From contig CAKVGS010000005.1 of assembly GCA_934747335.1 (NCBI GenBank), positions 8,050 to 72,049 of the forward strand: a stretch of 64,000 nucleotides of DNA. Direction: 5' to 3'. The notes beneath the pieces were generated by a model. The model was not told where the DNA came from and did not search any database. It worked only from the letters and a program-made list of their open reading frames with translations. Positions within the stretch are counted from its first letter, which is position 1. Each line of letters starts with the position of its first letter. A program made the position numbers and the translations under genes. This document shows positions 22,106-54,708 of the stretch, in pieces. The stretch is from an uncultured Candidatus Melainabacteria bacterium. GTDB lineage: Bacteria; Cyanobacteriota; Vampirovibrionia; Gastranaerophilales; Gastranaerophilaceae.

Positions 22106-22515
22106 AGTTAATAACACCCTCTCCCGCCTTCGGCACCCTGTCTTGGATTATTCGGGCGAGCATAACATTCCAATAACAACAAATCCTTACGGATTTTAGT
22201 AGTCATTTCCATGTTATTTGCTCTTACGGGCTTGCTCGCTTACGCTCGACATCGCCCTACCAAAAATCCGCTCCCCCGAGGGAGGGAACTAAAGTCGTTC
22301 GTTTTAATTAAACTACATGCGCTAAATTAACTTTAATTATCTATATCACCCTCATCTGAGCGGAGCTCTGATGAGGGTGGTATAGACAAATATTATTAAC
22401 GAATTTTCCATTCTCCACTTTCAATTTTCCATTTATCAAAACCCACCCGCATCTGTAAGGCTCGGTATAGCCTCACCAACAGCTGCGACCTCCCTAACCA
22501 TGGAGGTTTTTATTT
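22106..22515. repeat. left GC-rich mosaic repeat island (modules M6 interrupted by E133, short M4, AT-rich spacer, M3 inverted)
   Basis: Direct comparison with 23499-24121, 45084-45480, 46491-47004 and 54603-54708. Confidence 0.9.
22140..22272 (+). mobile_element. E133: 133-bp small element inserted inside module M6
   Basis: The host reads ...cggcaccct|cccccgaggg... uninterrupted at 24075-24095 and 54668-54690 (opposite strand); here gtcttggatt...aaaatccgct lies exactly between the two halves. Confidence 0.7.
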
Positions 22516-22638
22516 TTAAAAATTTGTAACAATCATGTAAAGTTTTGTAACAATATTGTCATACATGTGAAATTCTCAAGTCTTGGAAGACTTTATATAT
22601 ATAAAAGTACAAATAGACACGGAGACTAGATACAGACA

Positions 22639-23427
22639 ATGGCATTCTTAATGTTATTACATGAAAAAATGAGGCTTCAACGTAAAGTCAACAAATTGAC
22701 TTTACAAGAACTTCGTATATCTAGTCGAAAGGAAAGGATAACGAAGAACATTTCTAGAGTACAAAAAATGTATTCTAGTAAAATGTCTCAACTTGAGAAA
22801 CAAGCACAAATAATGCAAAGTCAAGCTACGGTATTCTTCCAAAATCAAATGGGATTGGGCACTCAAAATCAAGCATTTAATCCTTGGAATATGAATGGTA
22901 GCGGTGTAACAAGCTTTGTTCTAAACCAAATGGGTAGTATGCTTGCAAGTGGTCAAATTCCAAAAGACAAAGATTCTAAGTTTGATGCAATTGATGGTAC
23001 AAGATTCCAAGAAATGTTGCAAGATTATTATGTAACAGGATTGCAACAAACAAAAAATGCTGATGGTAACTACTTAGGTGATGATAAATTTGGTACAGAT
23101 GGTAAGTTTACAAAAGACGAAGTAACTGCTTTCAAGATGGCAATGTCAGCAGCTCAAAACAACCAATCTCAAGCTCAAGCAATGTGCAGTCAGATGAGTT
23201 CTCAATACCAAAGCAATGTTTCAATTTGGTTAGAAGCAGCAAAATCACAATTAGAAGCAGAACAAGATATGGCTCTTGCTCCGTTAGAAGAAAAAGAAAC
23301 CGAAATGGATTTGGACAAAGAATCTTGCGAAGCTCAACTTGCAGATGCAAAGGCAAGATTGGAAAGCATCAAACAAGCTTGTTCAGAAGGAATCAAGGAC
23401 TCAGCTCCAACCTTCGGTTTAGGTTAA
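22639..23427 (+). CDS. orphan Q/N-rich coiled-coil protein
   Basis: 262-aa ORF with heptad-like N- and C-terminal segments and a Q/N/S/M-rich middle; no recognisable domain; weakly placed ggag 14 nt upstream. Confidence 0.55.
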   Translation: MAFLMLLHEKMRLQRKVNKLTLQELRISSRKERITKNISRVQKMYSSKMSQLEKQAQIMQSQATVFFQNQMGLGTQNQAFNPWNMNGSGVTSFVLNQMGSMLASGQIPKDKDSKFDAIDGTRFQEMLQDYYVTGLQQTKNADGNYLGDDKFGTDGKFTKDEVTAFKMAMSAAQNNQSQAQAMCSQMSSQYQSNVSIWLEAAKSQLEAEQDMALAPLEEKETEMDLDKESCEAQLADAKARLESIKQACSEGIKDSAPTFGLG

Positions 23428-23464
23428 TCAAATATCGGATAGTAATTATTATAATAATTGACTC

Positions 23465-23497
23465 CGCCTGCTCCCAAAAGAGCAGGCGTTCTTGTAT
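23465..23497 (+). terminator. hairpin after the orphan coiled-coil ORF
   Basis: cgcctgctc ccaaaa gagcaggcg ttcttgtatt (weak T tract). Confidence 0.5.
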
Positions 23498-23614
23498 TAA
23501 AACCTCCATGGTTAGGGAGGTCGCAGCTGTTGGCGAGGCTATGCAGAGCCTTACAGATGCGGGTGGGTATTTGATAAATGGAAAATTGAAAGTGGAAAAT
23601 TAGTTAATAATTTT

Positions 23615-23755
23615 TATCTATACCACCCTCATCAGAGCTCCGCTCAGCTTCTCCCCTCGAGGGAGAAGCGGTAGAATACGTTAAATTGGCGCAAGTGACG
23701 GCTTCGCCCTTGAGGGGAGAAGCTGAGCGGAGCTCTGATGAGGGTGGTATAGATA
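23615..23755. repeat. module M4, full copy: 44-bp perfect inverted repeat around a 53-nt centre
   Basis: tatctataccaccctcatcagagctccgctcagcttctcccctc (23615-23658) is the exact reverse complement of 23712-23755. Confidence 0.95.
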
Positions 23756-23766
23756 ATTAAATTAAT

Positions 23767-23830
23767 CCATGTTATTTGCTCTTACGGGCTTGCTCGCTAA
23801 CGCTCGACATCGTCCTACCGAAAATCCGCT
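23767..23830 (+). repeat. E133 3' half copy, with the same right junction (ccgct|cccccgag) as the copy at 22140-22272
   Basis: ccatgttatttgctcttacgggcttgctcgctaacgctcgacatcgtcctaccgaaaatccgct. Confidence 0.8.
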
Positions 23831-24139
23831 CCCCCGAGAAAGGGAGTGATATACGTTAATTGAACGACTGTGGTTATTCCATCTCCGAGGGAGAGGGCTA
23901 GGGTGAGGGTTTTGCAATACGTAAAGTAAACAAATTTTATAAACTAAATCGCCTACGGCACGACCCCTCACCCGAAAATCTAAGTTTCGCACAGCTCAAC
24001 TTGATTTTCTACCCTCTCCCAAAGAGAGGGTTTGTGCGAACCCCGAACGACTTTAGTTCCCTCCCTTTTGTCCATTTTACTCGGGGGAGGGTGCCGAAGG
24101 CGGGAGAGGGTGTTATTAACTATAATAAAAAGCCTACAA

Positions 24140-27100
24140 CTAACCCGCAGTCAAAGAGAAAATATCGTAGATTTCTTGGTCTGAAAGTTCTGTAATAATC
24201 TTTTCGCCTTCGTAAACCGCCAAATCAGCAAGTTCTTTTTTAGACTTCAACATCTCGTCAATCTTTTCTTCAAAAGTTCCGAGTGTAATAAGTCTATGCA
24301 CCATAACGTTCTTTTCTTGACCGATACGGTACGTTCTATCTGTCGCTTGATCCTCTACCGCCGGATTCCACCACAAGTCATAGTGAATTACGTTAGTTGC
24401 ACTTGTTAAGTTCAAACCTGTACCACCGGCTTTCAGTGAAAGTATCATAATTTTTCTATCGTTATTCGTTTGGAAATCTTCAATCAATTTTTCACGTTGT
24501 GGAACTGTTAATGAACCGTGGAAAAATGAAGGTTCTGAACCACATTCTTCAAGTAGCATTTTAGTTAATAAATCGCCCATTTCTTTATATTGAGTGAAAA
24601 TAAGAGTTTTTTCATTATTATCCAAAATACTCTGCACCAAAGAAACGCATTTTTCTGCCTTACCTGAAAGTTCTTTAGAAGTTTCACCGCTTTTTAAGAA
24701 TTGATAAGGGTGATTACAAATTTGTTTAAGCGCAGTTATAAGCTTGAAAATATTACCGCGTCTGTTAACACCTGTAAATCCGCTGATTTTTTCCATCATT
24801 TCGTTAAGCGTTTTTTCGTATAAAATAGCTTGAGATTTAGCCAAATAGCAATAATCGTTCATTACCATCTTGTCAGGCAAATCCGAAATTACGTGTTTAT
24901 CGGTTTTTAAACGTCTTAAAACAAATGGTGAAACAGAAAGTTTAAGTTTTGACGCCCTTGTTTTTTCTTTAAACCTTTCAATAGGCACAGCATAACTCTT
25001 TTGGAATTCCTTTAATGAGCCTAAATAACCTTTGTTGATGAAGTCGAAAATACTCCAAAGCTCTGTAAGACGGTTTTCCACCGGAGTACCTGTCATTGCA
25101 ATCTTGATATCTGATTTTAGTGATTTAATCGCCAAAGTTTGCGCCGTGTCAGGGTTTTTAATATTTTGAGCTTCGTCTACAACAATCATGCCCCAAGTAT
25201 TTTTCTTCATTTCTTCAACATCTATTCTCATGATTGCATAAGTTGTAAGAATAACGTCGCATTTTAAATCAAGTTTTCTATCCATTCCATGATAAGTCGC
25301 AGTTTTTAGAGAAGGTGCAAACAGTTGCAATTCTTTCATCCAGTTACCCATCAAAGTAGTTGGACAAATTACCAACACAGGGTTTTTAATTTTCTTTTCT
25401 TCTTTTAGTTTAAGAATTAAGCTTATAACCTGAATGGTTTTACCTAACCCCATATCGTCAGCCATACAACAACCAAAACCTTTTGAAACATTTGTCCAAA
25501 GCCATTTAAGACCTGTCATTTGGTATGCTCTTAAATCGCCCTTCAAACCTTCAGGCTGAGTAACTTCAACAGGCTTTGCAAAATCCTTGATAACGTTTGC
25601 ATAAGCTTCATCATAATTGAAGTCATAATTTTGAAGTTGACCTGACATAGAAGCGTGTATAAGTTCAAGTCTTGTCATCTTCTTATGATTAGCATTTTGA
25701 ATTTGTTCAACAAGCTTCAAGCCTTCAGCTTTATCAACTAAAATGTATTTGCCGTTGTATTGAATTAGGCCGTTGCTTTCGTTTACAAGTTTGTTAAACT
25801 CTTCCAATGAAATCTTTTCATCACCTAATGAAATTTCGTAAGTAAAGTCTAAAATATCATCAAGAGAAATTGCACTGCTTGAAACAGTGTTAAAGATATT
25901 CATTAAATCGTCTGAACGAGAAGCTTTAACTTTAGCATTAATTGATGCTCGCGGAATAATAATATTTGTTAACTCTTCCGGTAAGATTACGTCAATTTGT
26001 GCTTTTTGTAAGTAATAAGCCGTTTGAGCAATAATTTTATAAACTTCATTTAAGTTCAAAGTTAGAGCTAGTTTGTCTTCATCTTCAAAAAGAGTTTCAA
26101 GCTCCGGCATGTATCTAACGGCATAATTAAGTTGTTTTTCAATAATTTTAGATATATCAGCCGTATCTAAGCCCCAAATCTCATCTTCATGATAAAGTTC
26201 GTCAAGAAGAATTGTCTCATCAGTTTTTCTATTTTTGATATGGATTTTAAGTTCAAACTGATCATCGCTAACTTTATTTACCTTGAAGAATGGGATTAAG
26301 TCATATTTGCCGAGATACAATTCATCGAACCATTGCGCAAAGTTTTCGGCAAGGTCTTTACCCTTCATTAAGCATCTTTGTTCTAAATCCTTAATCATAT
26401 AATGACCGGATTTAATGTCTTTGAAACGGTAAGCCTTAATTCCTAAGAATTTGTAAACAAGGTAGTTCAAATATTCTCTGACAAATCTTTCAACAAAATC
26501 TTTTGGCTTGTCACCTTTAATGAACAAGTTTTCAGGTAGATTGTTTTCAAGCTCGTTAATAATTTTTGCAGATTCTTTATTAGAAATAATCGGCTCATAA
26601 ACAATTCTGAAAGAACCGCCTGATGCGCCTTCTTTTCTATGTACTGTCGGTATAAAGTACAATTTTTCAATAAGCTTCATAACAAAGTGTGTAAGCTTGT
26701 TGAAATATGCAAAAGTTTGAGTTAATGAAGAGAAATCAACAACTTCACCAAATCCGCCAAAATAGTCTAAAACTAAATCTAATGGCATGATGTAGCCGAT
26801 TTGACCGTTAACTTCTTTAGACGTAAATCTAAACATTGAACCTTTAGATTTTAGATAAAATTGAAAATTGTTTGTAGGTGTTACAAAAAACGACAATTTA
26901 GGATTAGTCACCGTACCATCGTTTATAAGCAAGAAATCAGTATTTCTTACAGGTGAATTCGGAGATAGAAAAATCCCCTCAAACTCATCCTCTACAAGCT
27001 GATAAATCAAACTTAACGTGTAACGGAAATCTTTGTTCTTGAAACCGTTTGGGTTTTCACTCAAATTGTAAAAGAACTCATCTACATTGTTTTTCTTTAG

Positions 27101-27145: not shown

Positions 27146-27184
27146 TGTTTTCTCTCAATATAATTATGTAGTTAAAGATTTTAG

Positions 27185-27285
27185 AAGTTGAATAGTTGAA
27201 AGGTTGAAAGGTTCTTTAAATTCGCTAACGCTCATAAAGGTTATAATGAACGATTCAACTGTTAAGCTTTTCAACTATTCAACTT
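27185..27285. repeat. 17-bp perfect inverted repeat with 67-nt spacer between gpmI and the SNF2 gene
   Basis: aagttgaatagttgaaa (27185-27201) versus tttcaactattcaactt (27269-27285); a ttgaaagg x2 tandem sits inside. Confidence 0.8.
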
Positions 27286-27295
27286 TTTCTCTTTT

Positions 27296-29974: not shown

Positions 29975-30033
29975 TATTTTTATCTCTTTTTATCGCAACA
30001 AAAGAGATAAAAATAAACATTTCAAAATAATTC

Positions 30034-30099: not shown

Positions 30100-30335
30100 T
30101 TCTACAACCTGTCGGTTGTGGTTCAAATGGATGTAGCAGGCAGAGCCTGCACTCTTACGCTCACTATCGCAGCTAATCGCTGCACGCTCGCGGCGCGAAT
30201 GTCGTTCAATTGTTAAAAGCTGTGCCAAAATCATTCGTTATTAGCACAATCCCTCACTTTGGGAGAGGGTAGAAAATCAAGTTGAGCTCTGCGAAACTTA
30301 GATTTTCGGGTGAGGGTTCGAGCCGGAGGCTACAT
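30100..30335. repeat. mosaic island (small hairpins, M5, M1)
   Basis: acgctcgcggcgcgaatgtcgttcaat is shared with 33710-33736; the M1 copy ccctcactttgggagagggtagaaaatcaagttgagc...gattttcgggtgagggtt is shared with 23951-24040, 45101-45190 and 46525-46614. Confidence 0.85.
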
Positions 30336-32702: not shown

Positions 32703-32768
32703 CTTAATAATACCCCTCATCAGGGCTCCGCCCAGCTTCTCCCACAAGGGGCGAAGCACCAAATTCGC
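32703..32768. repeat. M4-derived fragment
   Basis: acccctcatcagggctccgcccagcttctccc...ggggcgaagc resembles the M4 arm and centre. Confidence 0.6.
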
Positions 32769-33652: not shown

Positions 33653-33790
33653 ATAATCCAAGACAGCGGGTGAACCCGCACTCTAGCGCTCGCTAAAAAA
33701 CGCTCGCGGCGCGAATGTCGTTCAATAATTATGGACAGTTGTGTCCTATTATGTTAGGGAATAACCGCAACTTGTTTACTTAAAATATTA
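33653..33790. repeat. island with the E133 end (inverted) abutting module M5
   Basis: ataatccaagac (reverse complement of the E133 5' end) is followed by agcggg..., then gcactctagcgctcgct...acgctcgcggcgcgaatgtcgttcaat. Confidence 0.7.
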
Positions 33791-37538: not shown

Positions 37539-37602
37539 TTAAAAAGGTGGGAAAAGCGTAAGCGGTTCACACCTTATGTATTTGAAGGATAATGAAAAGA
37601 AT

Positions 37603-37630
37603 GTTAATGGTGCAAAAAATTGCACCCTAC
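37603..37630 (+). repeat. solo copy of the ggtgcaaaaaattgcaccctac hairpin repeat
   Basis: gttaatggtgcaaaaaattgcaccctac, identical to the reverse complement of 38563-38590. Confidence 0.85.
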
Positions 37631-37679
37631 ATATCTTTAGTCCAACTTAATAAAAAAAGCATAGTAGATTTAAAATTAG

Positions 37680-38378
37680 TTAAGAGTTGTAGTTGTTAAG
37701 TTTAAAGGCAAGAATTGTGCTTTCAGGGGCATTATCTGATTCAAATACGGCAACAAAATAGAGAAAATATTTTTTGTATAAATCTATTTGCAATTTAATT
37801 ATTTCTTCATCATTCCCTATTATTTGTTTTTTTGTCTGATTAATTTTTACAGCAGGATAAATTATAAATTTTTTATCTTTAGTTTCAATAGTTAAAGTTA
37901 AATTTTCAATAAAAGTAGTTACTAAAGGTGCTCCAGACTTTCTTGTTGCAGTAATAGTTCTAACTATACCTTTTAGCTCGGCACTAATAATTTCTGATTT
38001 CATTATTGAAAAATCATTATTTTTTATAGTGTTTTTAAAAAATAAATTGTTATTATTAAAAGTAATATATTTTATATTAGGTGTAGTGTAAAATTTATGG
38101 CGCGCCATTTTAGTTCTGCATAATTCCATAAAAAATCTTACAAGAAAATAAAGTGGACATAATACAAATATAAAAAACATTCCTAGCACAACAAATACCC
38201 CCGAATCTTGAATTGATTGCAAGAAGTCTTGTAAATAATTTTTGTCAATTAATAAGGAAGGTATTTCAAAAATAAATAATACAATATACAAAGATAAACC
38301 TATAAAATGACTTATAAAACCAATACCACTAACCGCTTCAGGAATATTATAAATAGTGTTAATTTCTACATTTTTCAT
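37680..38378 (-). CDS. orphan membrane protein (2-3 TM N-terminal half, soluble C-terminal half)
   Basis: Very AT-rich ORF, hydrophobic N-terminal segments; bracketed by copies of the ggtgcaaaaaattgcacc element. Confidence 0.5.
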   Translation of the reverse strand: MKNVEINTIYNIPEAVSGIGFISHFIGLSLYIVLFIFEIPSLLIDKNYLQDFLQSIQDSGVFVVLGMFFIFVLCPLYFLVRFFMELCRTKMARHKFYTTPNIKYITFNNNNLFFKNTIKNNDFSIMKSEIISAELKGIVRTITATRKSGAPLVTTFIENLTLTIETKDKKFIIYPAVKINQTKKQIIGNDEEIIKLQIDLYKKYFLYFVAVFESDNAPESTILAFKLNNYNS

Positions 38379-38484
38379 TTTTGAATTATAACTAAAAAAC
38401 AGTTAATAATAAACTAGCTTTTTCGCTTTACAATACACTTTCAAACATGCAGGTCAGGTTCAACATTTTCATTAAACACGACAA

Positions 38485-38590
38485 GTTAATGGTGCAAAAA
38501 TTGCACCCTACAATTGGCAAAGAAATATATGTTCGATTTTGAACGTATTTTATTCAAGAAACGTAGGGTGCAATTTTTTGCACCATTAAC
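38485..38590. mobile_element. 106-bp MITE-like element with 27/28-bp terminal inverted repeats that are themselves hairpins
   Basis: gttaatggtgcaaaaattgcaccctac ... gtagggtgcaattttttgcaccattaac; a third solo copy lies at 37603-37630. Confidence 0.7.
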
Positions 38591-38637
38591 GTTAATCCAT
38601 TTGTCGTATTGGATAAAAATTGTCCAACCCTACCTAT

Positions 38638-45083: not shown

Positions 45084-45480
45084 AATGTCGTTCGCTGATG
45101 GCGCAAGCCCTTCTCTTTGGGAGAGAGTAGAAAATCAAGTTGAGCCACGCGAAACTTTGATTTTCGGATGAGGGTTCAAACCGTAAGGCAATTTTTACTT
45201 ATTATTTTGTAAAACCCTCTCCCTAGCCCTCTCCCTCGGAGAGGGAATAACCTAAACTCGTTCACTGATTGCGCTAGCGACCTCCATTAATATGAAGGTC
45301 GCAGTTGTGCGAACGTGAGTGAGCTACAAATGCGGGTGGGTTACGACTTTTTAAGACTCTTCTATACCACCCTCATCAGCTCTTCGGGCAGCTTCTCCCC
45401 TCTAAGGAGAAGCGGTAGAATGCGCCAAATCAGCACAAATGACGGCTTCGCCATCGAAGGGAGCTCTGATGAAGGTGATA
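45084..45480 (+). repeat. mosaic island upstream of the pilin gene (M1-M2-M3-M4, degenerate M4)
   Basis: Collinear with 46518-47004 in the same orientation. Confidence 0.9.
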
Positions 45481-45525
45481 CAAACACAGCAAAACAACAA
45501 TTTCAACAACTCTCACCTCAAACCC

Positions 45526-45597: not shown

Positions 45598-46425
45598 ATG
45601 AAACATGGTTTTACACTGGCAGAAGTGTTAATAACTTTGGGTATTATCGGTGTAGTTGCAGCATTATCAGCACCAAGCTTGGTCCAAAACGCAAGTTCTG
45701 CACAAGTAGGACCAAAATTGGCAAAAGCTATATCAACATTTGAAACAGCAAACGAAAACTTATTGCAAGAAGCAAGTGCGACAAGAATCGCAAATTCCGG
45801 AGCAACAGAAGGCAGTGGGAATGATATTCAGCAAAATTATATCGTTAACCTTTCTAAATATATGAAAATTGCCTATTTAAATGAAGGAGAAGGTAGTTCA
45901 AAATATGCTTCTATGATAAAAAATTACAATGGTTCAGCTATAAAAAACCCCGGAGATACTAGTTCCAATTCAAACTCTAACTCTAACGGAGGGCTTGTTG
46001 ACAAAGTTAGTTTTGACAAATTTCTACCAGACTTGGTGGGGCTAAAAACAGATGAAGCAGTAAAACATTTGGGCCTTACAAAAGATGGCATGTTATTTGC
46101 AATTGCACTAAATACAACTCCTGCAAACTTACAACAGATCGCCGTTGACAAAGATGGTAACGTTGTTGGTAACGCAAATGATGTATCTCCTGCTCACCAA
46201 ACACAATATGGCACAGTGCTTATTGATGTTAACGGAAAGGCCAAGCCAAACAGGATTGGTAAAGACGTATTTTTATTTAGGATGATGGAGGATGGAACAT
46301 TATCACCTTATGGTGCAGGAGGACTATGGAACACCGGCACTGATAAATGTAACGCAAGTGAAGTTACAACAGGTAATACTTGCGGAGCGTCAATCTTAGA
46401 AAATGACAGAAAAGTTATTTACTAA
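45598..46425 (+). CDS. type IV pilin-like / pseudopilin protein (prepilin N-terminal methylation motif)
   Basis: MKHGFTLAEVLITLGIIGVVAAL class III signal; strong RBS aaggag; own promoter and terminator. Confidence 0.8.
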   Translation: MKHGFTLAEVLITLGIIGVVAALSAPSLVQNASSAQVGPKLAKAISTFETANENLLQEASATRIANSGATEGSGNDIQQNYIVNLSKYMKIAYLNEGEGSSKYASMIKNYNGSAIKNPGDTSSNSNSNSNGGLVDKVSFDKFLPDLVGLKTDEAVKHLGLTKDGMLFAIALNTTPANLQQIAVDKDGNVVGNANDVSPAHQTQYGTVLIDVNGKAKPNRIGKDVFLFRMMEDGTLSPYGAGGLWNTGTDKCNASEVTTGNTCGASILENDRKVIY

Positions 46426-46490: not shown

Positions 46491-47004
46491 CACCACCCCT
46501 CTCTGTATAAGTCCTTCACCAATGGCACAAGCCCCTCTCTTTGGGAGAGGGTAGAAAATCAAGTTGAGCCACGCGAAACTTAGATTTTCGGGTGAGGGTT
46601 CAAGCCGCAAGGCAATTTTTTATTTGTATACTTATTGTTTTGTAAATCCATCACCCTAACCCTCTCCCTCGGAGAGGGAATAACCTAAAGGCGTTCACTG
46701 ATTGCGTTAGCGACCTCCATGAATAGGGAGGTCGCAGTTGTTGGCAAGGCTCTGCCGAGCCATACAAATGCGGGTGGGTTACGATTTTTAGACTATTCTA
46801 TGCCACCCTCATCAGAGCTCCGCTCAGCTTGTCTTGGATTATTCGGGCGAGCATAACATTCTAATAACAAAAAATCCTAACGGATTTTAGTAGTTATTTC
46901 CATGTTAAATGCTCTTACGGGCTTACGCCCTACCGAAAACCCGCTCTTCCCTCAAGGGAGAAGCGGTAGAGATGCATCAAATTAGCACAAGTAACAGCTT
47001 CGCT
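46491..47004 (+). repeat. mosaic island downstream of the pilin gene (M1-M2-M3-M4 with E133 insertion)
   Basis: Collinear direct repeat of 45084-45480. Confidence 0.9.
46831..46945 (+). mobile_element. E133 second copy (115 bp, internal deletion) inserted inside module M4
   Basis: The host reads ccgctcagctt|ctcccctcgagggagaagcgg uninterrupted at 23641-23670; here the same gtcttggatt...aacccgct element splits it. Confidence 0.7.
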
Positions 47005-47013
47005 TAAATTTAT

Positions 47014-47042: not shown

Positions 47043-47063
47043 ACATTTATAAGGAAAATTCAC

Positions 47064-48047
47064 TTGAAATACAAACAGCTTACAAAAGAACAAATTTTAA
47101 TATCACTAGACAGGCTAACACGTTTTAAGCCGACTAAAGAAAAATACTTGCGCGTTTTTTTTGACATAATTTTGAACAATATTATAGAACCCAAGTACAA
47201 AAAAACGGAATTAGAAACTTTTGATACAGAAATAATTAGGGATTTAGCAGTTGAAGTACTAAACGGCTCATTGGATGAAACTTCCACAAACAATATAAAT
47301 ACAAAATTATTAAATTACGAAAATTCTATTTTCAACAATGATGAGCAAACACAAGTTCTGCTAAACAACAACATACATTACGATTCAGCAATAAAGCTTA
47401 TTGATGAAAATTGTGTAGTAAATTTGCGTTGGCTAAAATCTTTAGCCGAAGATGCAGATTTAAAACTCATGCGAGAAGAACACTATTTGAAATTTCCGAT
47501 AGAAAAAGTCTTATTAGTAGAAGGTTTGACAGAAGAGACATTATTGCCGGCATTCTCAAAATTCTTAGGGCATGACTTTTACCAAAAAGGGATTCAGGTA
47601 ATTCCTGCGGGAGGGAAAAGTCAAGTCGTTAAGATGTATTATAAATTATCAGAAGAGTTAAAGCTACCTATATTTGTACTTCTTGATAAAGATGCAGAAG
47701 AAAATATTGCACAAATTAAACCAAAATTAAGAAATTGCGATAAAATCCATCTCGTTTCTTGCGGAGAGTTTGAAGATTTGTTGCCAAAATCTCTTATTAT
47801 AAAAACTATAAACAAGCATTTGGAAAATTTTAACTCAATTAGCGAACAAGATTTTGAAGAAGGAATTCCAAATGCAAAAAATTTAGAAAATATTTTCAAA
47901 ACAAAAGGTTTACACGAGTTTAAAAAAGCTGAATTTGCAAAACTGGTAAGAACAAATATTACAGAAAACACGGACGTTTCGGACGAAATAAAAGAAATTA
48001 TTAAAGAAATATCAAACAAAACTCTTGACAGTCAATTTTGTTCCTGA
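47064..48047 (+). CDS. orphan Toprim-domain protein (OLD-family/AriB-like nuclease domain, no ATPase domain)
   Basis: LLVEGLTEETLLP (Toprim Glu), IPAGGKSQV, VLLDKDAEE (DxD), EFEDLLP; TTG start 8 nt after aagga; about 140-aa N-terminal region of unknown fold. Confidence 0.55.
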   Translation: MKYKQLTKEQILISLDRLTRFKPTKEKYLRVFFDIILNNIIEPKYKKTELETFDTEIIRDLAVEVLNGSLDETSTNNINTKLLNYENSIFNNDEQTQVLLNNNIHYDSAIKLIDENCVVNLRWLKSLAEDADLKLMREEHYLKFPIEKVLLVEGLTEETLLPAFSKFLGHDFYQKGIQVIPAGGKSQVVKMYYKLSEELKLPIFVLLDKDAEENIAQIKPKLRNCDKIHLVSCGEFEDLLPKSLIIKTINKHLENFNSISEQDFEEGIPNAKNLENIFKTKGLHEFKKAEFAKLVRTNITENTDVSDEIKEIIKEISNKTLDSQFCS

Positions 48048-48132
48048 TACTATAAATCTTGTGGTTAATCCACAGCCGAAGTATAAAAGGTTTTTGATAA
48101 ATAAATAGTTTTTACAAATTTTATAAAAATTT

Positions 48133-48205
48133 GCGCTTGTAGCTCAGCAGGTAGAGCACTCCCCTTTTAAGGGATAGGTCGCGCGTTCGAATCGCGCCAA
48201 GCGCA
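48133..48205 (+). tRNA. tRNA-Lys (anticodon UUU)
   Basis: Hand-folded cloverleaf: acceptor gcgcttg/caagcgc, D arm gctc-agcaggta-gagc, anticodon loop cTTTTaa, T arm gcgcg-ttcgaat-cgcgc; CCA not encoded; one C-U mismatch at pair 27-43. Confidence 0.85.
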
Positions 48206-48432
48206 ATTTTTTTTGTCAATTTTACTAAAGTTAAGCGCAAGCATTATTGTACTTCACCAGCTAGAGAGTCCCCTTTTTGAGGGATAGGTCGTGCTTTGTA
48301 CCGAATCGCGCCAAGCGCAATTTTTTTGTCAATTTTATTAAAGTTAAACGCAAGCATTATTGTACTTCACCAGCTAGAGAGTCCCCTTTTTGTGGGATAG
48401 GTCGTGCTTTGTACCGAATCGCGCCAAGCGCA
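48206..48432 (+). repeat. two tandem units (114 and 113 bp), each holding a degenerate tRNA-Lys-like sequence plus T-run and spacer
   Basis: Each unit ends ...gggataggtcgtgctttgtaccgaatcgcgccaagcgca + T-run, copying the tRNA 3' half with a 6-nt insertion in the T arm; the 5' part is degenerate (broken acceptor, 8-nt anticodon loop ctttttga / ctttttgt). Confidence 0.85.
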
Positions 48433-48463
48433 ATTTTTTTTGTCTATACACTTTTAATAGAAA

Positions 48464-48514
48464 AACCCTCACCCTAGCCCTCTCCCTTGGAGAGGGAATA
48501 ACTCAAGTCGTTCA
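48464..48514 (+). repeat. solitary M2 module
   Basis: aaccctcaccctagccctctcccttggagagggaataactcaagtcgttca. Confidence 0.85.
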
Positions 48515-48594
48515 TTTTTTGATAAAAAAAACCAATCTTTTATTACAAACATATTCATGCTAAAATCCTTATATAAAATTTTAGAGGAGTAATA

Positions 48595-49419: not shown

Positions 49420-49420
49420 A

Positions 49421-50536
49421 ATGAAAAAGAAAATAAGTATATTAGGTTCAACAGGCTCAATCGGCAGACAAGCTCTTGAAGTAATCGAAAAACTTCAGGA
49501 TAAGTTTGAAATTATAGCTTTAACGGCGGGTGCCAATACCGAACTTTTGAACGAACAAATAAAAAAGTTTAAACCAAAATATGCTTATGCAGAAAAAATA
49601 AACGAAATTGTTGGCGCTAAGCCTTTGAGTTTGGAAGAAATTTGCTCAAACAAAGAAAATGATATCATTTTGGTAGCTGTTTCGGGCAGAATAGGTTTAA
49701 GACCAACAATCACAGCTATTAACAATGGAATTGATATTGCTTTGGCAAACAAAGAAACGCTTGTCATGGCAGGTGATATTGTCATGCCATTAGCGAAAGA
49801 AAAAGGCGTAAAAATTGTTCCAGTTGACAGTGAACATTGCGCAATTCACCAGTGTATCAAAAACGTTACTCAGGTTGACAAATTAATAATTACGGCCTCA
49901 GGCGGGCCATTTTTGAAGAAAACGGTAGAAGACATGAAAAATGCTACTGTTGAACAAGCTTTAGCGCATCCTCGTTGGAATATGGGACGTAAGATTACGG
50001 TTGACAGTGCAACTCTTATGAACAAAGGCTTAGAAGTTATTGAAGCGCATCATTTGTTTGGTATGGATTATGACGACATTCAAGTTGTTGTTCACCCTCA
50101 AAGTATTGTGCATTCTGCCATTGAATACGTTGATGGAAGCGTTATTGCACAATTGGGATTGCCAAGCATGCACATTCCTATTCAGTACGCAATTACTTAT
50201 CCCGAAAGATACGAAGGCATAAAATCAAAAAGTTTCAACTTTGCTGAAATTGCACATTTGGATTTCGAAGAACCTGATTGGGATAAATTTAAAGCTCTCA
50301 AATTAGCGTATAACGCAGGCAGAGTAGGTGGTTCAGCAACTGTTTGTTTGAATGCCTCAAACGAAGAAGCCGTATTTGCATTTTTAAAAGGTCAAATAAA
50401 ATTATTTGATATTATTGAGTCTGTTGAAAAAATGATGGCAGAGCACAAGGTAATAAAATCACCTGATTTAGATGAAATTTTCGCAATAGACGAAGAAATT
50501 CGACACAAAACCAAAGAATTATTTAAGGTTTTATAG
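49421..50536 (+). CDS. dxr: 1-deoxy-D-xylulose 5-phosphate reductoisomerase
   Basis: ILGSTGSIGRQ, LANKE, DSEH, HP.W.MG.KITVDSATLMNKGLE. Confidence 0.95.
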   Translation: MKKKISILGSTGSIGRQALEVIEKLQDKFEIIALTAGANTELLNEQIKKFKPKYAYAEKINEIVGAKPLSLEEICSNKENDIILVAVSGRIGLRPTITAINNGIDIALANKETLVMAGDIVMPLAKEKGVKIVPVDSEHCAIHQCIKNVTQVDKLIITASGGPFLKKTVEDMKNATVEQALAHPRWNMGRKITVDSATLMNKGLEVIEAHHLFGMDYDDIQVVVHPQSIVHSAIEYVDGSVIAQLGLPSMHIPIQYAITYPERYEGIKSKSFNFAEIAHLDFEEPDWDKFKALKLAYNAGRVGGSATVCLNASNEEAVFAFLKGQIKLFDIIESVEKMMAEHKVIKSPDLDEIFAIDEEIRHKTKELFKVL

Positions 50537-50615
50537 TGTAAATGTAACAATCTTTTAAAATTTCGTTACAAACTAGCAACTTTTATTGTTCAGCGTACTT
50601 TAATTAGATGTAGGA

Positions 50616-52508
50616 ATGTATTGTCATGGTAGGTCTTATTTGAAAGTACAAAGCTCAACAGTTCAAAATACTAATAGAAATGATAAGCAAGAGAAATCCA
50701 ATGTAGCATTTAAATCAGGCATGGTTAACGCCTTGAACGCTTCAGGTGCGATTATGCAAGGTATTGAAAATGGAGGTTTTCTTGCGTCGTTCTTAATTCA
50801 GGATGGAATTGGCATGACCGTTCCACGTACGGCTGCGGGTTTTTTGCGTGACAAAGAACACACAGGTCACTACAATGTACAAGAAGGTTTCGAAGTATTG
50901 GGCAGAGAAGGTTTGACAGGTCCTTGCATGATGGCTGTTGCACCTTTATCATTGTTAATCGCAGCAAAATTCGGCCGTTCAACAAGTGTTAACACTCAAT
51001 TAATAAAACGTTTTGGCAACAGTTTAAAAGAAATATTGGCAAAACCTGAATTTGACAAATCTCTATTAAAAGATGCCGAAAAATTCAAAAATGAGTTTTA
51101 TAAAACTAACATTGAAAAAATATTAGGCGAAACAGTTGGTAAAGAAAATGCCTCAAAAGATTCTGTTGAGTATATTTTAAAACAGATTAACAATATGGAA
51201 AAAATTCCTACTGACGCAAAATTAGAAAAATTCAGAGGGAAATCCAAATACAAAAATCAATGTATGCAAAATATTATTGAGCATATCAATAATGTTAAAT
51301 ATAAAACCAGTGATGATTTGAATATGCTGCAAAAAGTTAAATTCGGCTCTGAAAAACTGGACAGCATTAAGAAATTTAAAACAAAAGATACAATTGATGC
51401 AATGATTAAGTATACAGATGACGCAATCGTTGCGAACAAACATTTGGATAAATTAGATGAACTTCAAGCTGAAAGTATTAAAAATAAATCATTGGCAAAA
51501 AGAATGATTACAAATGTTGCAATGATTTTTGCAACATTGGGTGTTCTTTCGGTACTTCCTAAAATTTATGCAAGAAATAGCGTAGCTCCGGGTGCAAGAA
51601 AAGCTCCCGAAGAAAATAAAAACGAAGAAGTATCATTCAAGGGAAAGGGAAAGCCCGGACTTTTGGAAAGACTTGGTAAATTAATCGGTAAAAATAACAG
51701 CGATTTTGCTTCGCATGAACTTGAATACAACGGTCATAACTTTACAAATTCCTTAATGGCAGGGCTATCTATATTCGGTTTGCTTACTCCTAGAGGATTG
51801 CATGCTTATAACAGAGCTCAGAAAGATGAAAACGGCAAAAAAGATTTAACAGAATTATATGAAATCTTGCTAAGAGATTTAACATCAAGCTTAGCAGTTG
51901 TATTTGCAGTTCCAATGGGAACTAGAGCTTTTGTAACTTCTTATGAAAAGAATTCAGGCTTTGTTCTTATGCATAAAGACAGAAGTATGGGAAAAACTAA
52001 AACAATTGCAGATTTATTCAATCCTTACTCAAAATCTCATGTACTTACCAACGCTGAAATATCAGCATTATATGACAATGTAAATTCTAAAGATAAAATG
52101 TTGAACTTCTGTAAATATATCGACAAAAACGGCGGTGATTTGCAAAAAATCATTTCTAAATCTGAAAATGCAGAAGAAATGTTTAACAGTTCTTCTCTTG
52201 ATTTGAAATCACTTAAAGGTATGAAAAAAGCCGATAAAAACAAGAAAATTATATCTTTTGTAGAAAAATTTGATAAATCGGATGAACTGATCACTAAAGT
52301 TATGAAAGGTGCAGGAAAGGGTCGTGGCAACAAGATTGCATCATTTGCAAGAGGTTTGAACTCTATGCCGGGCTTATTGACAACATTCTTCATATCTCCA
52401 TACTTATTGGGTTGGTTTATTCCTCGATTGACTTATAAGAACACAAGAAGAATTCACGAAAAACAAGACAGAGAACGTGAAGCAAAAAATCTTTCAACTA
52501 ATGCCTAA
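50616..52508 (+). CDS. orphan 630-aa protein with several hydrophobic segments
   Basis: Long ORF, no recognisable domain; start codon uncertain. Confidence 0.5.
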   Translation: MYCHGRSYLKVQSSTVQNTNRNDKQEKSNVAFKSGMVNALNASGAIMQGIENGGFLASFLIQDGIGMTVPRTAAGFLRDKEHTGHYNVQEGFEVLGREGLTGPCMMAVAPLSLLIAAKFGRSTSVNTQLIKRFGNSLKEILAKPEFDKSLLKDAEKFKNEFYKTNIEKILGETVGKENASKDSVEYILKQINNMEKIPTDAKLEKFRGKSKYKNQCMQNIIEHINNVKYKTSDDLNMLQKVKFGSEKLDSIKKFKTKDTIDAMIKYTDDAIVANKHLDKLDELQAESIKNKSLAKRMITNVAMIFATLGVLSVLPKIYARNSVAPGARKAPEENKNEEVSFKGKGKPGLLERLGKLIGKNNSDFASHELEYNGHNFTNSLMAGLSIFGLLTPRGLHAYNRAQKDENGKKDLTELYEILLRDLTSSLAVVFAVPMGTRAFVTSYEKNSGFVLMHKDRSMGKTKTIADLFNPYSKSHVLTNAEISALYDNVNSKDKMLNFCKYIDKNGGDLQKIISKSENAEEMFNSSSLDLKSLKGMKKADKNKKIISFVEKFDKSDELITKVMKGAGKGRGNKIASFARGLNSMPGLLTTFFISPYLLGWFIPRLTYKNTRRIHEKQDREREAKNLSTNA

Positions 52509-52512
52509 CTAA

Positions 52513-53178
52513 TTACAGATAATTAGATAAAATAGATTTAACGTAATTTTGTGTTTCTTTATAAGGCGGCACGCCATCGTATTTGTCGACAGCTCCAGGG
52601 CCTGCATTATATGCAGCGAGTGCAAGAATTACATTTCCATTATATTTGTTAAGCATTGATTTTAAATATTTAACTCCGCCTTCTACATTCTGTTCAGGAT
52701 CCATTGCGTTTGTAACGCCCAAACCTTTTGCAGTTGCAGGCATTAATTGCATTAATCCCATTGCACCAACTTTTGATTTAGCATTAGGATTAAAACCTGA
52801 TTCTTGTTTAATCAATGCATTAACAAGTTTTTCATCAACGCCATGTTTTTTAGAAATTTTTGAAACCAAACCTTTAATCTGTTCTCTTGTTGTAACTTTT
52901 TCAGCGACTCCTGATGCTTTTGCTGTATAAATATTAGCGTTAACTCTTGTTGAAGGATTTGTAAGTAAGTCCCCAAACTTAACTTGTGCGGAATTTTTTA
53001 ATACATTATCAAAAGATTGAATCTTATTATTTGTATCAGATAACGCGTTTGCATTCTTTTCAACAGGTGCCCATTGTGAATTAAGATTATTCACATAATT
53101 ATTCATTTGAACAGCTCTTTGCATAGCGCTTGATTTACCTGAAGATGTTAATAAATTCTGAATCATTGACGAAAACAT
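52513..53178 (-). CDS. lytic transglycosylase (SLT domain) with N-terminal extension
   Basis: IKQESGFNP (catalytic Glu), GLMQLMP, AYNAGPG; start moved to the ATG at 53178 behind aaagga. Confidence 0.85.
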   Translation of the reverse strand: MFSSMIQNLLTSSGKSSAMQRAVQMNNYVNNLNSQWAPVEKNANALSDTNNKIQSFDNVLKNSAQVKFGDLLTNPSTRVNANIYTAKASGVAEKVTTREQIKGLVSKISKKHGVDEKLVNALIKQESGFNPNAKSKVGAMGLMQLMPATAKGLGVTNAMDPEQNVEGGVKYLKSMLNKYNGNVILALAAYNAGPGAVDKYDGVPPYKETQNYVKSILSNYL

Positions 53179-53337
53179 AGTTATAAATCCTTTCAATAAT
53201 TATGTCGGATATTAATTATTAAACTTTAGAAATAAAAATCAAATATCCACCATTTGGTTTAATAATATTTTTTTTATTGTCAAAAATTTATACGATAAAC
53301 GATTGAAAAAGCGATATATAGATGATATTATTTAGAC

Positions 53338-53700
53338 ATGTTAAAAAAGTGTTTATTAATTTTAGTATTAACATTGTTTTTGCCCGCTTTCGCAGGTGAA
53401 GTAGAAAACGCAATCAATAAAGGATATAACGTGTTTTTGTATCTCTATACACCAGATTGCGGTTATTGTAAAAAGTTTTCACCAAAATATGACAAACTTT
53501 CCAAATTATATGACGGACAATACAACTTTTTCAAAATTGACGCAAGTACTGACTACGGACGCGATTTAATGATTAAATATCGTGGAATGTATGTACCTTA
53601 TGTATTATTACTTAATAATAAAAAAGGCGTACAAGTTAATCCGGATTGCTTAATGGACAATGTTTGCATAGAAAGAAATATGAAATATTTTAGAGGATAA
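53338..53700 (+). CDS. secreted thioredoxin-like protein
   Basis: Signal peptide plus the CGYC active-site motif in a thioredoxin-fold context. Confidence 0.7.
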   Translation: MLKKCLLILVLTLFLPAFAGEVENAINKGYNVFLYLYTPDCGYCKKFSPKYDKLSKLYDGQYNFFKIDASTDYGRDLMIKYRGMYVPYVLLLNNKKGVQVNPDCLMDNVCIERNMKYFRG

Positions 53701-53709
53701 GGAGTTTTT

Positions 53710-54597
53710 ATGAAGGGAATTGTATTAGCAGGAGGAGCAGGAACAAGATTATATCCGGCATCACAGCCTATTTCAAAAATTTTATTACCGATTTATGATA
53801 AACCAATGATTTATTATCCGCTTTCAACTTTAATGTTAGCAGGTATTAAAGATATATTAATCATTACCAATGAACTCGATTATGATAACTTCATCAAAGT
53901 TTTGGGTGACGGTTCTCAATTTGGTTTGAACTTACACTACAAAATACAATATGTTCAAAGAGGTATTGCAGACGCATTTTTAATTGCAGAAAATTTTATT
54001 GCAGGAGATGATGTTGCTTTAATTTTGGGTGACAATATTTTCCACGGTCACGGCTTCTCTACAATAATGAAAAATGCCCTAAAAAAACACGCCGGTGCAA
54101 CCGTTTTTGGTTACACTGTTAAAGACCCTGAAAGATTCGGCGTTGTTGAATTTGATGAAAACCAAAAAGCAATCTCTTTAGAAGAAAAACCCGCTCATCC
54201 GAAATCAAATTATGCGGTAACAGGTTTATACTTCTACGACAACAAGGTTTGTGATTTTGCAAAACAGCTTAAACCATCCGCCAGAGGCGAATTGGAAATA
54301 ACAGATTTAAACAGAATATACTTAGAACGCGGAGAATTAAATGTAGAAATTCTTGGACGCGGTTTTGCTTGGCTTGATACAGGAACACATGATTCAATGC
54401 TTCAAGCAAGTTTATTTGTTCAAACAATGGAATTGAATAAAGGCGTTAAAATTTCTTGCTTGGAAGAAATTGCTTTTAATCAAGGATTTATTACAAAAGA
54501 CGAATTGCTTAAAAAGATTGAAAAATACGGTACAAAGAACGATTATTACAACTATGTTCGCACGGTAATAGAGCATCCAACACCTGCGTTTGTTTAA
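53710..54597 (+). CDS. rfbA: glucose-1-phosphate thymidylyltransferase
   Basis: GIVLAGGAGTRLYP, GDNIF, LEITD, WLDTGT. Confidence 0.95.
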   Translation: MKGIVLAGGAGTRLYPASQPISKILLPIYDKPMIYYPLSTLMLAGIKDILIITNELDYDNFIKVLGDGSQFGLNLHYKIQYVQRGIADAFLIAENFIAGDDVALILGDNIFHGHGFSTIMKNALKKHAGATVFGYTVKDPERFGVVEFDENQKAISLEEKPAHPKSNYAVTGLYFYDNKVCDFAKQLKPSARGELEITDLNRIYLERGELNVEILGRGFAWLDTGTHDSMLQASLFVQTMELNKGVKISCLEEIAFNQGFITKDELLKKIEKYGTKNDYYNYVRTVIEHPTPAFV

Positions 54598-54602
54598 GCA
54601 CA

Positions 54603-54708
54603 ATAACTAAAGTCGTTCAAACAATATCGATTTGTTGCGTTAATTTAACGCATGTCACCCCCTCCCTCGGGGGAGGGTGCCGAAGGCAGGAGAGGGTGTT
54701 ATAAAAAT
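54603..54708. repeat. solitary M6 module plus an aactaaagtcgttca motif
   Basis: ccctccctcgggggagggtgccgaaggcaggagagggtgttat, the uninterrupted version of the nusA-cassette terminus. Confidence 0.85.

Follow-up and report, generated by a model that had tools for sequence, protein, structure and literature searches.

The BoxC/PIT/TM elements have been known since the 1990s. In the present work, we examine GC-rich intergenic repeat islands in a stretch of 64,000 nucleotides from an uncultured Candidatus Melainabacteria bacterium (GenBank assembly GCA_934747335.1, contig CAKVGS010000005.1, positions 8,050 to 72,049; hereafter the window). An earlier sequence-only reading of this DNA sorted the repeats into six modules, M1 to M6. 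We will show that five of these are versions of one three-strand unit, that the islands are probably mosaics of the BoxC/PIT/TM_ECO class, a kind already described, and that a separate element resembling a miniature inverted-repeat transposable element (MITE) is nested in some of the units. What appears to be new is the host lineage, the hairpins in loop 2 of M1, M3, M4 and M6, the arrays joined by a linker, the natural mirror covariation, and the MITE-like element that targets the units.

The closest described system is TM_ECO, earlier named BoxC and PIT element, as presented by Holder et al. 2015 with reference to the work of Hoyne/Maher and Bachellier (PMC4666352). Its published pattern is CCCTCNCCC-N3-6-GGGNGAGGG-N3-GGGNGAGGG, with 23 copies in E. 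coli K-12 and 3610 copies across 262 proteobacterial genomes (PMC4666352). The copies are always intergenic, show no strand bias, often form inverted A+B doublets and are unlinked to transposons; their purine-motif intrastrand triplex has been demonstrated by circular dichroism, nuclear magnetic resonance and in vivo dimethyl sulfate footprinting (PMC4666352). Promoter and terminator activity are both absent from PIT elements, and TM loci display raised local variability among E. coli strains (PMC4666352).

Two other systems serve for comparison. REP/REPIN elements are extragenic palindromes, mainly inverted doublets that form a hairpin, and are mobilised by RAYT transposases (Bertels and Rainey 2011, PMC3116915). 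Weinberg et al. 2010 (PMC2864571) described whalefall-1, a motif found in whale-fall metagenomes only, and considered it 'certainly RNA'.

Results and Discussion

The window contains nine intergenic islands with a GC content of 43-67%, compared to 33.3% for the whole window. The sequence-only reading had described GC-rich mosaic islands in at least ten intergenic regions; the islands are real, on secure statistical grounds, and nine can be counted. The copies it listed for M1 to M6 were all recovered, at the same coordinates or a few bases off, by repeat search, direct reading and a blastn map. Two short motifs are concentrated in the islands. The 9-mer GGRNGRGGG occurs 19 times in the window (0.65 expected), every time inside an island, and RTCGTTCR occurs 12 times (4.5 expected), all eight GTCGTTC(A/G) copies among these falling within islands.

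The six modules had been taken as independent kinds. This does not hold, as M1, M2, M3, M4 and M6 are versions of a single unit whose mirror third strand had been overlooked. Read on one strand, the unit consists of a C-rich block, a loop of 2-5 nt, a complementary G-rich block (G1), a second loop (loop 2) and a second G-rich block (G2), the last being the mirror image of G1 with one A changed to T. Loop 2 is either 3 nt long or a conserved hairpin of 11-38 nt. Examples of the blocks are the pyrimidine CCCTCTC(C), the pairing purine GGGAGAGGG and the mirror purine GGGTGAGGG. On the reverse strand, M2 reads CCCTCTCC-GA-GGGAGAGGG-CTA-GGGTGAGGG, and M1 follows the same plan with loop 2 exchanged for TAG, a 38-nt hairpin and C. 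M3 is built from CCTCC / GGAGG / GGTGG and has its own loop-2 hairpin, also of 38 nt and unlike that of M1. In M4 and M6 this hairpin measures 11 nt: an M4 arm comprises CTTC(T/G)CCC / GGGGAGAAG / GATGAGGG with the small hairpin GAGC-GGA-GCTC, and M6 comprises CCCTCCC / GGGAGGG / GGGAGAGGG with GCC-GAA-GGC in loop 2. A relaxed three-block pattern has 5 matches in the window and none in 100 shuffles.

The mirror rule can be read most directly from units with asymmetric blocks. In the M4 arm, G1 is GGGGAGAAG, its mirror is GAAGAGGGG and the observed G2 is GATGAGGG; in GC-rich relatives of the unit, G1 is GGGGAGAAGG, its mirror GGAAGAGGGG and the observed G2 GGATGAGGGG. In both the asymmetric M4 units and the rhizobial ones, G2 tracks the mirror of G1 and not a direct copy of it.

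Units are joined by a conserved linker, ACTAAAGTCGTTC(A/G)-CTGAT(T/G)GCGC(A/T)AG, which can also be written ACTAAAGTCGTTCR-CTGATKGCGCAAG. The module ends in aa(a/g)(t/c)cgttca that the sequence-only reading had found to be shared are present, and they are shared because they form part of this linker. Pairs of units also form doublets: M4L, the long form of M4, is a head-to-head doublet, and M1-spacer-M2 is a tail-to-tail doublet that occurs three times in the window.

Evidence for a conserved fold

An indication of a third strand comes from 57 distinct M1-like copies. Position 4 of G1 and position 6' of G2 are A/A in 43 of them and G/G in 13, with a single G/A and no A/G. Both A/A and G/G are found in all three hairpin backgrounds, and the co-change has therefore occurred, or been passed on, repeatedly. 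Watson-Crick pairing between these two positions is impossible; in a purine-motif triad they are direct partners (A.A-T versus G.G-C). Mirror order and G1/G2 covariation together are the best evidence obtainable here, and they suggest that what is conserved is a three-strand fold. Since RNA does not form purine-motif triplexes (PMC4666352), this evidence points to single-stranded DNA.

The loop-2 hairpins covary as well. In M1, 6 pairs with 68 cells are changed on both sides, and in M3, 4 pairs are; in neither case do any of 500 shuffles reach the score. The M4 hairpin shows a compensatory change between GGGC/GCCC in the unit at 32712-32760 and GAGC/GCTC in M4L. The sequence-only reading had suggested selection on structure in the second hairpin of M3, with a stem kept in all copies. 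The excess of compensatory changes in the M1 and M3 hairpins bears out the selection; the copy at 45279 has a different second hairpin. The tips of many M1-like and M3 hairpins, GCGAAGC and GCGAAAGC, are what we take to be the 'extraordinarily stable' DNA mini-hairpins of Hirao and colleagues.

Other folds were also considered. A helix in which the 5' C block and the 3' tail enclose the unit is possible for 'G-type' copies; in it G1-4 and G2-6' pair with different C-block bases, and it does not predict their co-change. The same failure applies to a G-quadruplex of four G-tracts. The asymmetry between G.T and A.C mismatches was tried as a strand test in the M1 hairpin, which has 584 Watson-Crick pairs, 2 G.T and 0 A.C; with almost all pairs of the Watson-Crick type, the test cannot decide the strand. 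A hammerhead ribozyme, considered for CTGATGAG in M4, lacks a closing stem and GAAA, and has no Rfam match.

On this basis, we consider it probable that the islands consist of DNA repeats of the BoxC/PIT/TM class that fold as triplexes and are semi-selfish, with added loop-2 hairpins and with M7, the MITE-like element described below, targeting them. When the DNA becomes single-stranded in replication, transcription or repair, the first two blocks would form a hairpin, and the third would fold into its major groove to give a purine-motif triplex of G.G-C, A.A-T and T.A-T triads. The units would be non-coding structural repeats, kept homogeneous by selection for the fold or by conversion between copies. 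Whole blocks, often bracketing accessory genes, would be gained and lost between relatives, and the likely effect would be local recombination and rearrangement and not gene regulation. M7 would prefer the complement of the middle block, CCCT^CTCCC, for its insertion.

Comparison with the E. coli elements

The BoxC doublet between hrpB and mrcB of E. coli aligns block by block with M1-spacer-M2. The M1 hairpin accounts for 35 nt inserted into loop 2 of this alignment, and M1 and M2 are separated by a longer, AT-rich spacer. M2 itself matches intergenic sites of 1768 E. coli genomes with 88.9% identity over 36 nt. As in BoxC/TM_ECO, the units have a C block, a G block and a mirror G block with one T, and the 'mm' variant, with G opposite A, is present in the Melainabacterium too. 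Inverted doublets with a spacer, collapsed doublets and copy content that differs among relatives are likewise common to both. So are the exclusively intergenic position and the missing orientation bias: all unit copies are intergenic, with the upstream gene co-oriented in 32 cases and opposed in 18. The earlier proposal of a mosaic of dispersed, extragenic, palindrome-rich repeats of the BIME/REP kind is supported.

There are also clear differences. The host is a Melainabacterium with 33% GC, whereas the published survey of the pattern covers Proteobacteria. Loop 2 of M1, M3, M4 and M6 is a conserved hairpin of 11-38 nt instead of 3 nt. Finally, the arrays are strung together by a conserved linker, and the units serve as the target of a MITE-like element.

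The islands, labelled A to I, and their features are as follows; M7 and M8 are modules added in this work.

Island A, 22104-22512
22106-22301, minus strand: M6 unit with M7 inside, by direct reading; C strand CCCTCCC, G1 GGG^AGGG, loop-2 hairpin GCCGAAGGC, G2 GGGAGAGGG, closing linker AACTAAAGTCGTTCG
22140-22272, plus strand: M7 within M6, 133 bp, GTCTTGGATTATTCGGG...CCAAAAATCCGCT, with subterminal inverted repeats
22338-22392, no strand: collapsed M4 doublet (tail, loop-2 hairpin, tail), by repeat search and reading
22410-22510, minus strand: M8 (AT-rich, 22410-22440), then an M3 unit (22442-22510)
Island B, 23499-24125
23501-23612, plus strand: M3 unit (23501-23569; CCTCC / GGAGG / GGTGG, 38-nt loop-2 hairpin), then M8
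23614-23756, no strand: M4L, a 143-bp palindrome that is a head-to-head doublet, with 59-nt arms that are 95% complementary; each unit, both arms read 5' to 3', is CTTC(T/G)CCC, loop, GGGGAGAAG, CT, GAGCGGAGCTC, T, GATGAGGGTGG
23766-23846, plus strand: 3' fragment of M7, then a degenerate hairpin, CCCCCGAGAAAGGGAG
23872-24030, minus strand: M1-spacer-M2 inverted doublet (M1 23965-24030, M2 23872-23909)
24040-24121, plus strand: the linker GAACGACTTTAGTT, then an M6 unit whose loop 1 holds a 14-nt insertion
Island C, 30120-30335
30120-30316, plus strand: M5 (30120-30212; GC hairpins, end GAATGTCGTTCA), then a solo M1 (30251-30316)
Island D, 32712-32760
32712-32760, minus strand: single M4-type unit directly upstream of rpiB; CTTCGCCCC, TTGT, GGGAGAAG, CT, GGGCGGAGCCC, T, GATGAGGGG
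Island E, 33660-33726
33660-33726, plus strand: M5-type module, GCGGGTGAACCCGC ... ACGCTCGCGGCGCGAATGTCGTTCA
Island F, 45085-45482
45085-45482, plus strand: array upstream of the pilin-like open reading frame (ORF), made of linker, degenerate M1 (45109-45174), spacer, M2 (45211-45250), M3 with a variant hairpin (45279-45344) and M4 doublet (45361-45482)
Island G, 46511-46985
46511-46985, plus strand: array of the same modules downstream of the pilin-like ORF; M1 46533-46598, M2 46647-46686, M3 46713-46782, M4 46797-46985
Island H, 48462-48516
48462-48516, minus strand: solo M2 (48462-48501) and linker, after tRNA-Lys and its two pseudo-copies; CCCTCTCC, AA, GGGAGAGGG, CTA, GGGTGAGGG
Island I, 54602-54705
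54602-54705, plus strand: orphan linker AACTAAAGTCGTTCA and M6 unit (54655-54702), downstream of rmlA

The '44-bp' M4 element reported at 22338 is present: the 143-bp palindrome at 23614-23756 recurs there in collapsed form, as in the 'palindrome effect' of E. coli doublets. The M5 copies reported at 30185 and 33710 also exist; the full module is longer, at about 90 nt, and they cover only its 3' end. The segments 30184-30215 and 33700-33731 are 94% identical. The arrays at 45085-45482 and 46511-46985 are direct repeats of each other, 87-90% identical. The segment 23501-23612 forms with 22356-22513 an inverted repeat of about 160 bp that encloses ORF 22639-23427.

The nested element M7

Some units are interrupted by a separate MITE-like element, M7, that the sequence-only reading had missed. 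The M6 copy it gave at 22111 and the M4 copy at 46800 are present, each split by M7 (22140-22272 and 46831-46945), which it had not separated. The uninterrupted M6 copies at 24040-24121 and 54655-54702 reveal the insertion point in 22106-22301, CCCT^CCCCC, and in island G the element interrupts the left arm of the M4 doublet at GCTT^CTTCCC. The length of M7 is 87-136 bp overall; the copy of island A has 133 bp and that of island G 115 bp. Its inverted repeats, GGATTATTCGG/CCGAAAATCC, are subterminal, and the element folds so that the two ends pair.

Seven insertions were found, two in the window and one each in the related loci L015, L020, L031, L055 and L090. All have a single orientation: the element lies in the strand that complements the middle block, preceded by CCCT (6) or GCTT (1) and followed by C(T/C)(T/C)CC, the preferred site being CCCT^CTCCC. 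There is no target-site duplication beyond an ambiguous CT, and the GCTT^ site contradicts even CT. M7 is shorter than 200 bp, non-coding, bounded by inverted repeats and present in multiple dispersed copies, as MITEs are. Like MITEs and the IS200/IS605-derived palindrome-associated elements, it is small and non-coding, occurs in many copies and in one orientation, and has a short specific target without clear duplication. Unlike MITEs, no transposase or autonomous partner was found beside any of the copies, and the CT may be a 2-bp duplication or core. By analogy, its style of insertion resembles that of IS200/IS605-derived elements or of CT-core elements.

M7 is common to host and phage DNA: nine viral contigs from IMG/VR (L104-L112; for example L105 at 1506-1592, and L106) carry shorter relatives of 87-96 nt. 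In two homologous groups of phage genes, the M7-like element stands at the same codon (...GWSYNPA|) near the 3' end, after CT, and its removal restores a short natural C-terminus and a stop. These may be tolerated insertions, or the element may be removed from the mRNA. The end of an ORF with an apparent, TnpB-like zinc ribbon, beside the M7 end in L107, was considered as a partner and belongs to a capsid-like phage protein.

Occurrence beyond the window

The modules also occur outside the window, in keeping with the dispersal that the sequence-only reading had proposed; blastn and pattern scans find them elsewhere at unrelated sites. The invariant 19-mer of M1 is present in intergenic DNA at 21 loci of at least six species of Melainabacteria/Vampirovibrio or gut metagenome-assembled genomes (MAGs), with non-homologous flanks; 8 further matches lie within coding DNA and are due to chance. 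M2, M3, M5, M6, M7 and M8 co-occur with M1 in those 8-kb loci. In one of them, L010, an orphan ORF of 534 aa downstream of gyrA is bracketed by co-oriented M1-M2-M3-M1 arrays, much like the pilin-like ORF of the window. The M1 core has no match in the viral contig collection. Human-gut metagenome contigs, from Hadza and other cohorts among them, encode the window's proteins without change, and the nearest species-level relative with the same genes is L019, with 86-90% DNA identity. An orthologous copy of the M5-M1 pair of island C is present in L019.

We also scanned metagenomes with a pattern that fixed only the unpaired parts of M1 and left the stems free. Further variants were obtained from gut, rumen and GC-rich metagenome contigs, and they fall into three groups. 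The first consists of many AT-rich copies with compensatory changes in the long hairpin, such as AAAATC/GATTTT versus AATTTC/GAAATT, and GTTAAT/ATTTAC. The second consists of GC-rich versions on contigs with 65-68% GC, where a right-hand unit, CCCCTCATCC-ggcccttcgggcc-CCTTCTCCCC-TCAG-GGGAGAAGG, comes after an M1-like unit. The third comprises some unrelated-looking families. In two rumen MAGs, L030 (about 4000-4130) and L033 (about 7170-7300), the tip of the M1 hairpin carries a nested extension of 62 nt repeating GAGC...GCGAA, which could be either an extension of the stem or a like element inserted in the loop.

The right-hand unit has 676 places in 258 replicons of Rhizobium, Sinorhizobium, Azospirillum and Shinella; the placement of the GC-rich contigs themselves is weak, at 66% DNA identity to the glgX of Sinorhizobium, Shinella and Azospirillum. 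The rhizobial unit, CCTTCTCCCC-TGA-GGGGAGAAGG-T-GGCCCGAAGGGCC-GGATGAGGGG, has the architecture of M4 and M6 and joins an M1-like unit in the GC-rich contigs. It differs from the repeats of the window in its 10-nt GC-rich stems and its host organisms, and neither AT-rich spacers nor the linker were seen with it. The repeats of Rhizobium, Sinorhizobium and Azospirillum, which are palindromic, intergenic and present in high copy number, may be those called RIME, Sm-repeats or A/B/C palindromes in work on rhizobia.

With a near-identical unit in an AT-rich gut Melainabacterium and a GC-rich form in rhizobia, the class is far wider than the proteobacterial survey, and its blocks seem to be held by the fold itself rather than by shared host ancestry. 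A more doubtful proposal, which we offer tentatively, is that the 'hairpin-in-loop' M1/M3 units are an old structured DNA element that crosses phyla, present in Melainabacteria, in the GC-rich contigs, which are probably alphaproteobacterial, and possibly in whale-fall organisms. If this is true, the co-change from A.A to G.G would be the first comparative evidence that intrastrand purine triplexes are formed and selected in living cells, the whalefall-1 'RNA' of Rfam would be the same DNA element, and M7 would be a mobile element that lands on the folded unit, whether in a bacterial chromosome or in a phage gene. Natural 'mutants' for probing the importance of the triplex in vivo are provided by the mirror covariation and by the variants with expanded loops, and a MITE that targets the middle block may reveal enzymes that read these structures. 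On the practical side, the islands break metagenome assemblies and risk being mistaken for small RNA genes or riboswitches.

Triplex DNA or structured RNA

Several observations weigh against the triplex reading of the units. The window holds no exact match to the TM_ECO pattern as published, because the local C block is one base shorter (8 nt), loop 1 has 2-5 nt and loop 2 has 3-38 nt. M6 obeys the mirror rule imperfectly, and M5 and M8 are not triplex units. The unit copies share descent, and the counts given above thus exceed the number of independent events. The triplex fold of the Melainabacterium units is deduced from their sequence, the demonstrated case being TM_ECO of E. coli. The unpaired bases and the hairpin tip GAGC-NNN-GCGAA are strongly conserved across phyla, as expected of a functional RNA or a protein site. 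In 57 of 57 copies, folding favours the given strand over its complement, an effect that could come from base composition alone. M1 also bears a weak resemblance to whalefall-1, an RNA according to its authors.

The last three points can be turned into a different explanation, namely that M1 and M3 above all are small structured non-coding RNA genes or domains that act as RNA, for example by binding a protein or a target, and that the islands are RNA clusters. The compensatory changes in the second hairpins of M1 and M3 and the conserved unpaired bases would then be those of an RNA, whose GAGC-NNN-GCGAA tip could form tandem G.A pairs and tolerates the 62-nt extension of L030 and L033; it is the sense strand that folds better, and many M1 copies are followed by a small GC hairpin and a T-run. 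The architecture of M1 is that of whalefall-1, with a hairpin CUCUCC/GGAGAG, AGA, a second hairpin and GGGUGAGG. Against RF01762, the Rfam family of whalefall-1, M1 aligns over the full length with 20.6-21.5 bits (E 0.003-0.03), short of the gathering threshold of 37 bits; the whalefall-1 consensus itself appears to follow the mirror rule. At the gathering threshold, Rfam finds only tRNA-Lys in the window. With E-value thresholds added, the matches in the window, the islands and six related loci are tRNA-Lys, whalefall-1 below its threshold and, on the long palindrome, artefacts of the miRNA-hairpin type; there was no other. No known insertion sequence (IS), prophage or rRNA is matched either (Rfam and viral contig searches), which removes an origin that the sequence-only reading had regarded as fatal to its proposal.

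The orientation of the copies is mixed, as 32 of 50 share the direction of the gene upstream and 7 run antisense to the genes on both sides, and island F lies outside any predicted transcript. RNA pairing explains neither the co-change from A/A to G/G nor the mirror symmetry, and M2, the closest relative of M1, is the BoxC unit of E. coli, for which no promoter, terminator or RNA role was found. We therefore regard an RNA function as unlikely.

Turnover and mobilisation

Comparison with relatives shows how the islands change. Locus L088, whose flanking rmlA-like gene is 93% identical, has a 310-bp block of four modules (M1-type, M6, M3 and a fourth hairpin) that is absent from the window, where only 'gcacaataa' and the orphan linker of island I stand in its place. 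In a 97% identical strain, L002, synteny is lost right after island B. Of the 441 differences over the 14.7 kb shared with this strain, about 10 would be expected in islands C, D and E, and there are none. Near-identical strains show a few changes inside islands, including a conversion-like cluster in M7. These comparisons suggest homogenised units with block-wise gain and loss, a picture that would agree with the report on E. coli.

Beyond the break, after the SNF2 helicase gene, L002 (14695-14770) has wholly different DNA from the window (24125-24160), namely short repeats of the GGGGTAAATCGATA type and then a second, 79% identical hisKA-rpiB-rsfS block. The break could be a real rearrangement or a chimeric assembly. 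The breakpoints of synteny between the window and L019 do not lie at repeat units, which counts against the favoured account; the link to rearrangement is therefore shown for some sites only.

It is natural to ask whether the units are instead REP/REPIN-type elements, that is, inverted doublets moved as single-stranded hairpins by a single-copy HUH tyrosine transposase (RAYT/IS200-like), with the third G-block as recognition or guide sequence. Extragenic palindromes in inverted doublets with a spacer and in clusters match the definition of REPINs (PMC3116915). As in REP/BIME/REPIN, the doublets can form long hairpins, the clusters are mosaics, and the copies are homogeneous within a genome, being more alike than the flanking DNA; copies stand at non-homologous sites in several species, and the associated element M7 inserts without target duplication. 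Nunvar et al. 2010 reportedly described a conserved GTAG-type tetranucleotide 5' of the REP palindrome. GTAG does stand directly 5' of the long hairpin of M1, but it was fixed by the search patterns, and it is missing from M2, M3, M4 and M6. REPs are also without a mirror third block.

A search of the window and 112 loci, about 0.9 Mb and a small part of any genome, found no ORF with HUH and Y..NP motifs (RAYT/IS200) and no IS200, TnpB or integrase candidate; since RAYT is a single-copy gene, this is a weak negative. When 539 neighbouring ORFs were clustered in search of a recurrent transposase, the only recurrent set consisted of orthologous prophage-like genes. We know of no RAYT association for the BoxC of E. 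coli, and TM_ECO is unlinked to mobile elements. Moreover, no clean insertion polymorphism of a single unit with defined ends was found, the sole indel seen being the four-module block. Mobilisation of the REPIN type is accordingly judged quite unlikely. The cyanobacterial small dispersed repeats of Elhai et al. 2008 are said to be very short hairpins (about 20-30 nt) nested in one another; nesting as such is seen here too, with M7 inside units.

Gene context

The sequence-only reading had placed the islands next to orphan or accessory genes and not in core operons. The first part is correct, as the neighbours include a 262-aa ORF without Pfam matches, the pilin-like ORF and an OLD-type TOPRIM ORF. 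The second is not, since nusA, rpiB, an lptB-like ATPase gene, rmlA, rmlD and tRNA-Lys adjoin islands too, as do the SNF2 helicase gene and the iPGM neighbourhood. The bracketed orphan ORFs (22639-23427 and 50616-52508 in the window and the 534-aa ORF of L010) are not homologous to one another. Island F is located upstream of the predicted pilin promoter, between divergent genes.

This context bears on the idea that the units are cis-acting signals of the host, such as bidirectional terminators, mRNA stabilisers or sites for nucleoid or regulatory proteins, which recur because they are needed at many genes. Hairpins rich in GC within an AT-rich genome, often 25-60 nt past a stop codon, would suit such a role, the islands are more conserved than coding DNA in the 97% identical strain pair, and the AT-rich M8 and the conserved linker could be protein-binding sites. 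Most units have no T-run, however, and a terminator scan yields few candidates within the islands; the hairpins that evidently terminate nusA and ORF 22639-23427 are ordinary ones, separate from the units. Units are also found in divergent promoter regions and upstream of genes, arrays reach eight units, far beyond what a signal needs, and blocks are present or absent between close relatives whose flanking genes are unchanged. The lack of terminator and promoter activity in PIT elements of E. coli (PMC4666352) points the same way, and a host signal is very improbable.

Plain decaying local duplication, with neither selection nor dispersal, could each time produce the pilin-flanking arrays and the inverted repeat around ORF 22639-23427, but it is hardly credible as the general explanation in view of the modules at unrelated loci in other species and phyla, the compensatory changes, the mirror covariation of G1 and G2, and the conservation above that of the flanks.

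Minor observations

The tRNA-Lys(UUU) gene at 48132-48206 is followed by two tandem, degenerate 113-bp pseudo-tRNA copies with its 3' half and terminator (48132-48433), and upstream of it lie the OLD-type TOPRIM ORF (47064-48047) and the pilin-like ORF (45598-46425). The region resembles a small accessory islet, which repeated integration at the tRNA would have built up.

M8 (22410-22440 and 23570-23600; also in L011, L014, L024, L027 and L078) is AT-rich, AAATGGAAAATTGAAAGTGGAAAAT, and in several species regularly comes after units of the M3 or M1 type. A direct repeat, TGGAAAAT, lies within it, and it matches a weak promoter-like pattern directed away from the bracketed ORF.

One M1 copy alone, at 900-984 of L026, is clearly placed in a 5' leader: it lacks the 5' C block and ends 33 nt before an ORF that has a good ribosome-binding site.

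Two further ORFs of the window are enclosed by inverted repeats of other kinds. One, between rimP and nusA, is a 120-aa 23S_rRNA_IVP / bAvd-like ORF (20344-20706), flanked by the two arms (20299-20339 and 20747-20787) of a 41-nt inverted repeat composed of GGTAATAA-like heptamers. The other, ORF 37680-38378 (232 aa, without Pfam match), lies within a 38-nt inverted repeat that is 92% complementary, with the hairpin GGTGCAAAAAATTGCACC (37600-38593); this repeat could be two copies of a bidirectional terminator, or the ends of a cassette.

Finally, a separate, conserved family from peat and soil metagenomes (L042, L045, L048, L068, L070, L080, L085 and L095) has the form TCGTCGA-GGTAGAGACCCCC-[hairpin with GAGCGAAGCGAA]-GGGGG-AT-GGGGGG-...-TCGACGA. 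It has no name that we could find in Rfam, and it may be a triplex-type unit with a hairpin in loop 1.

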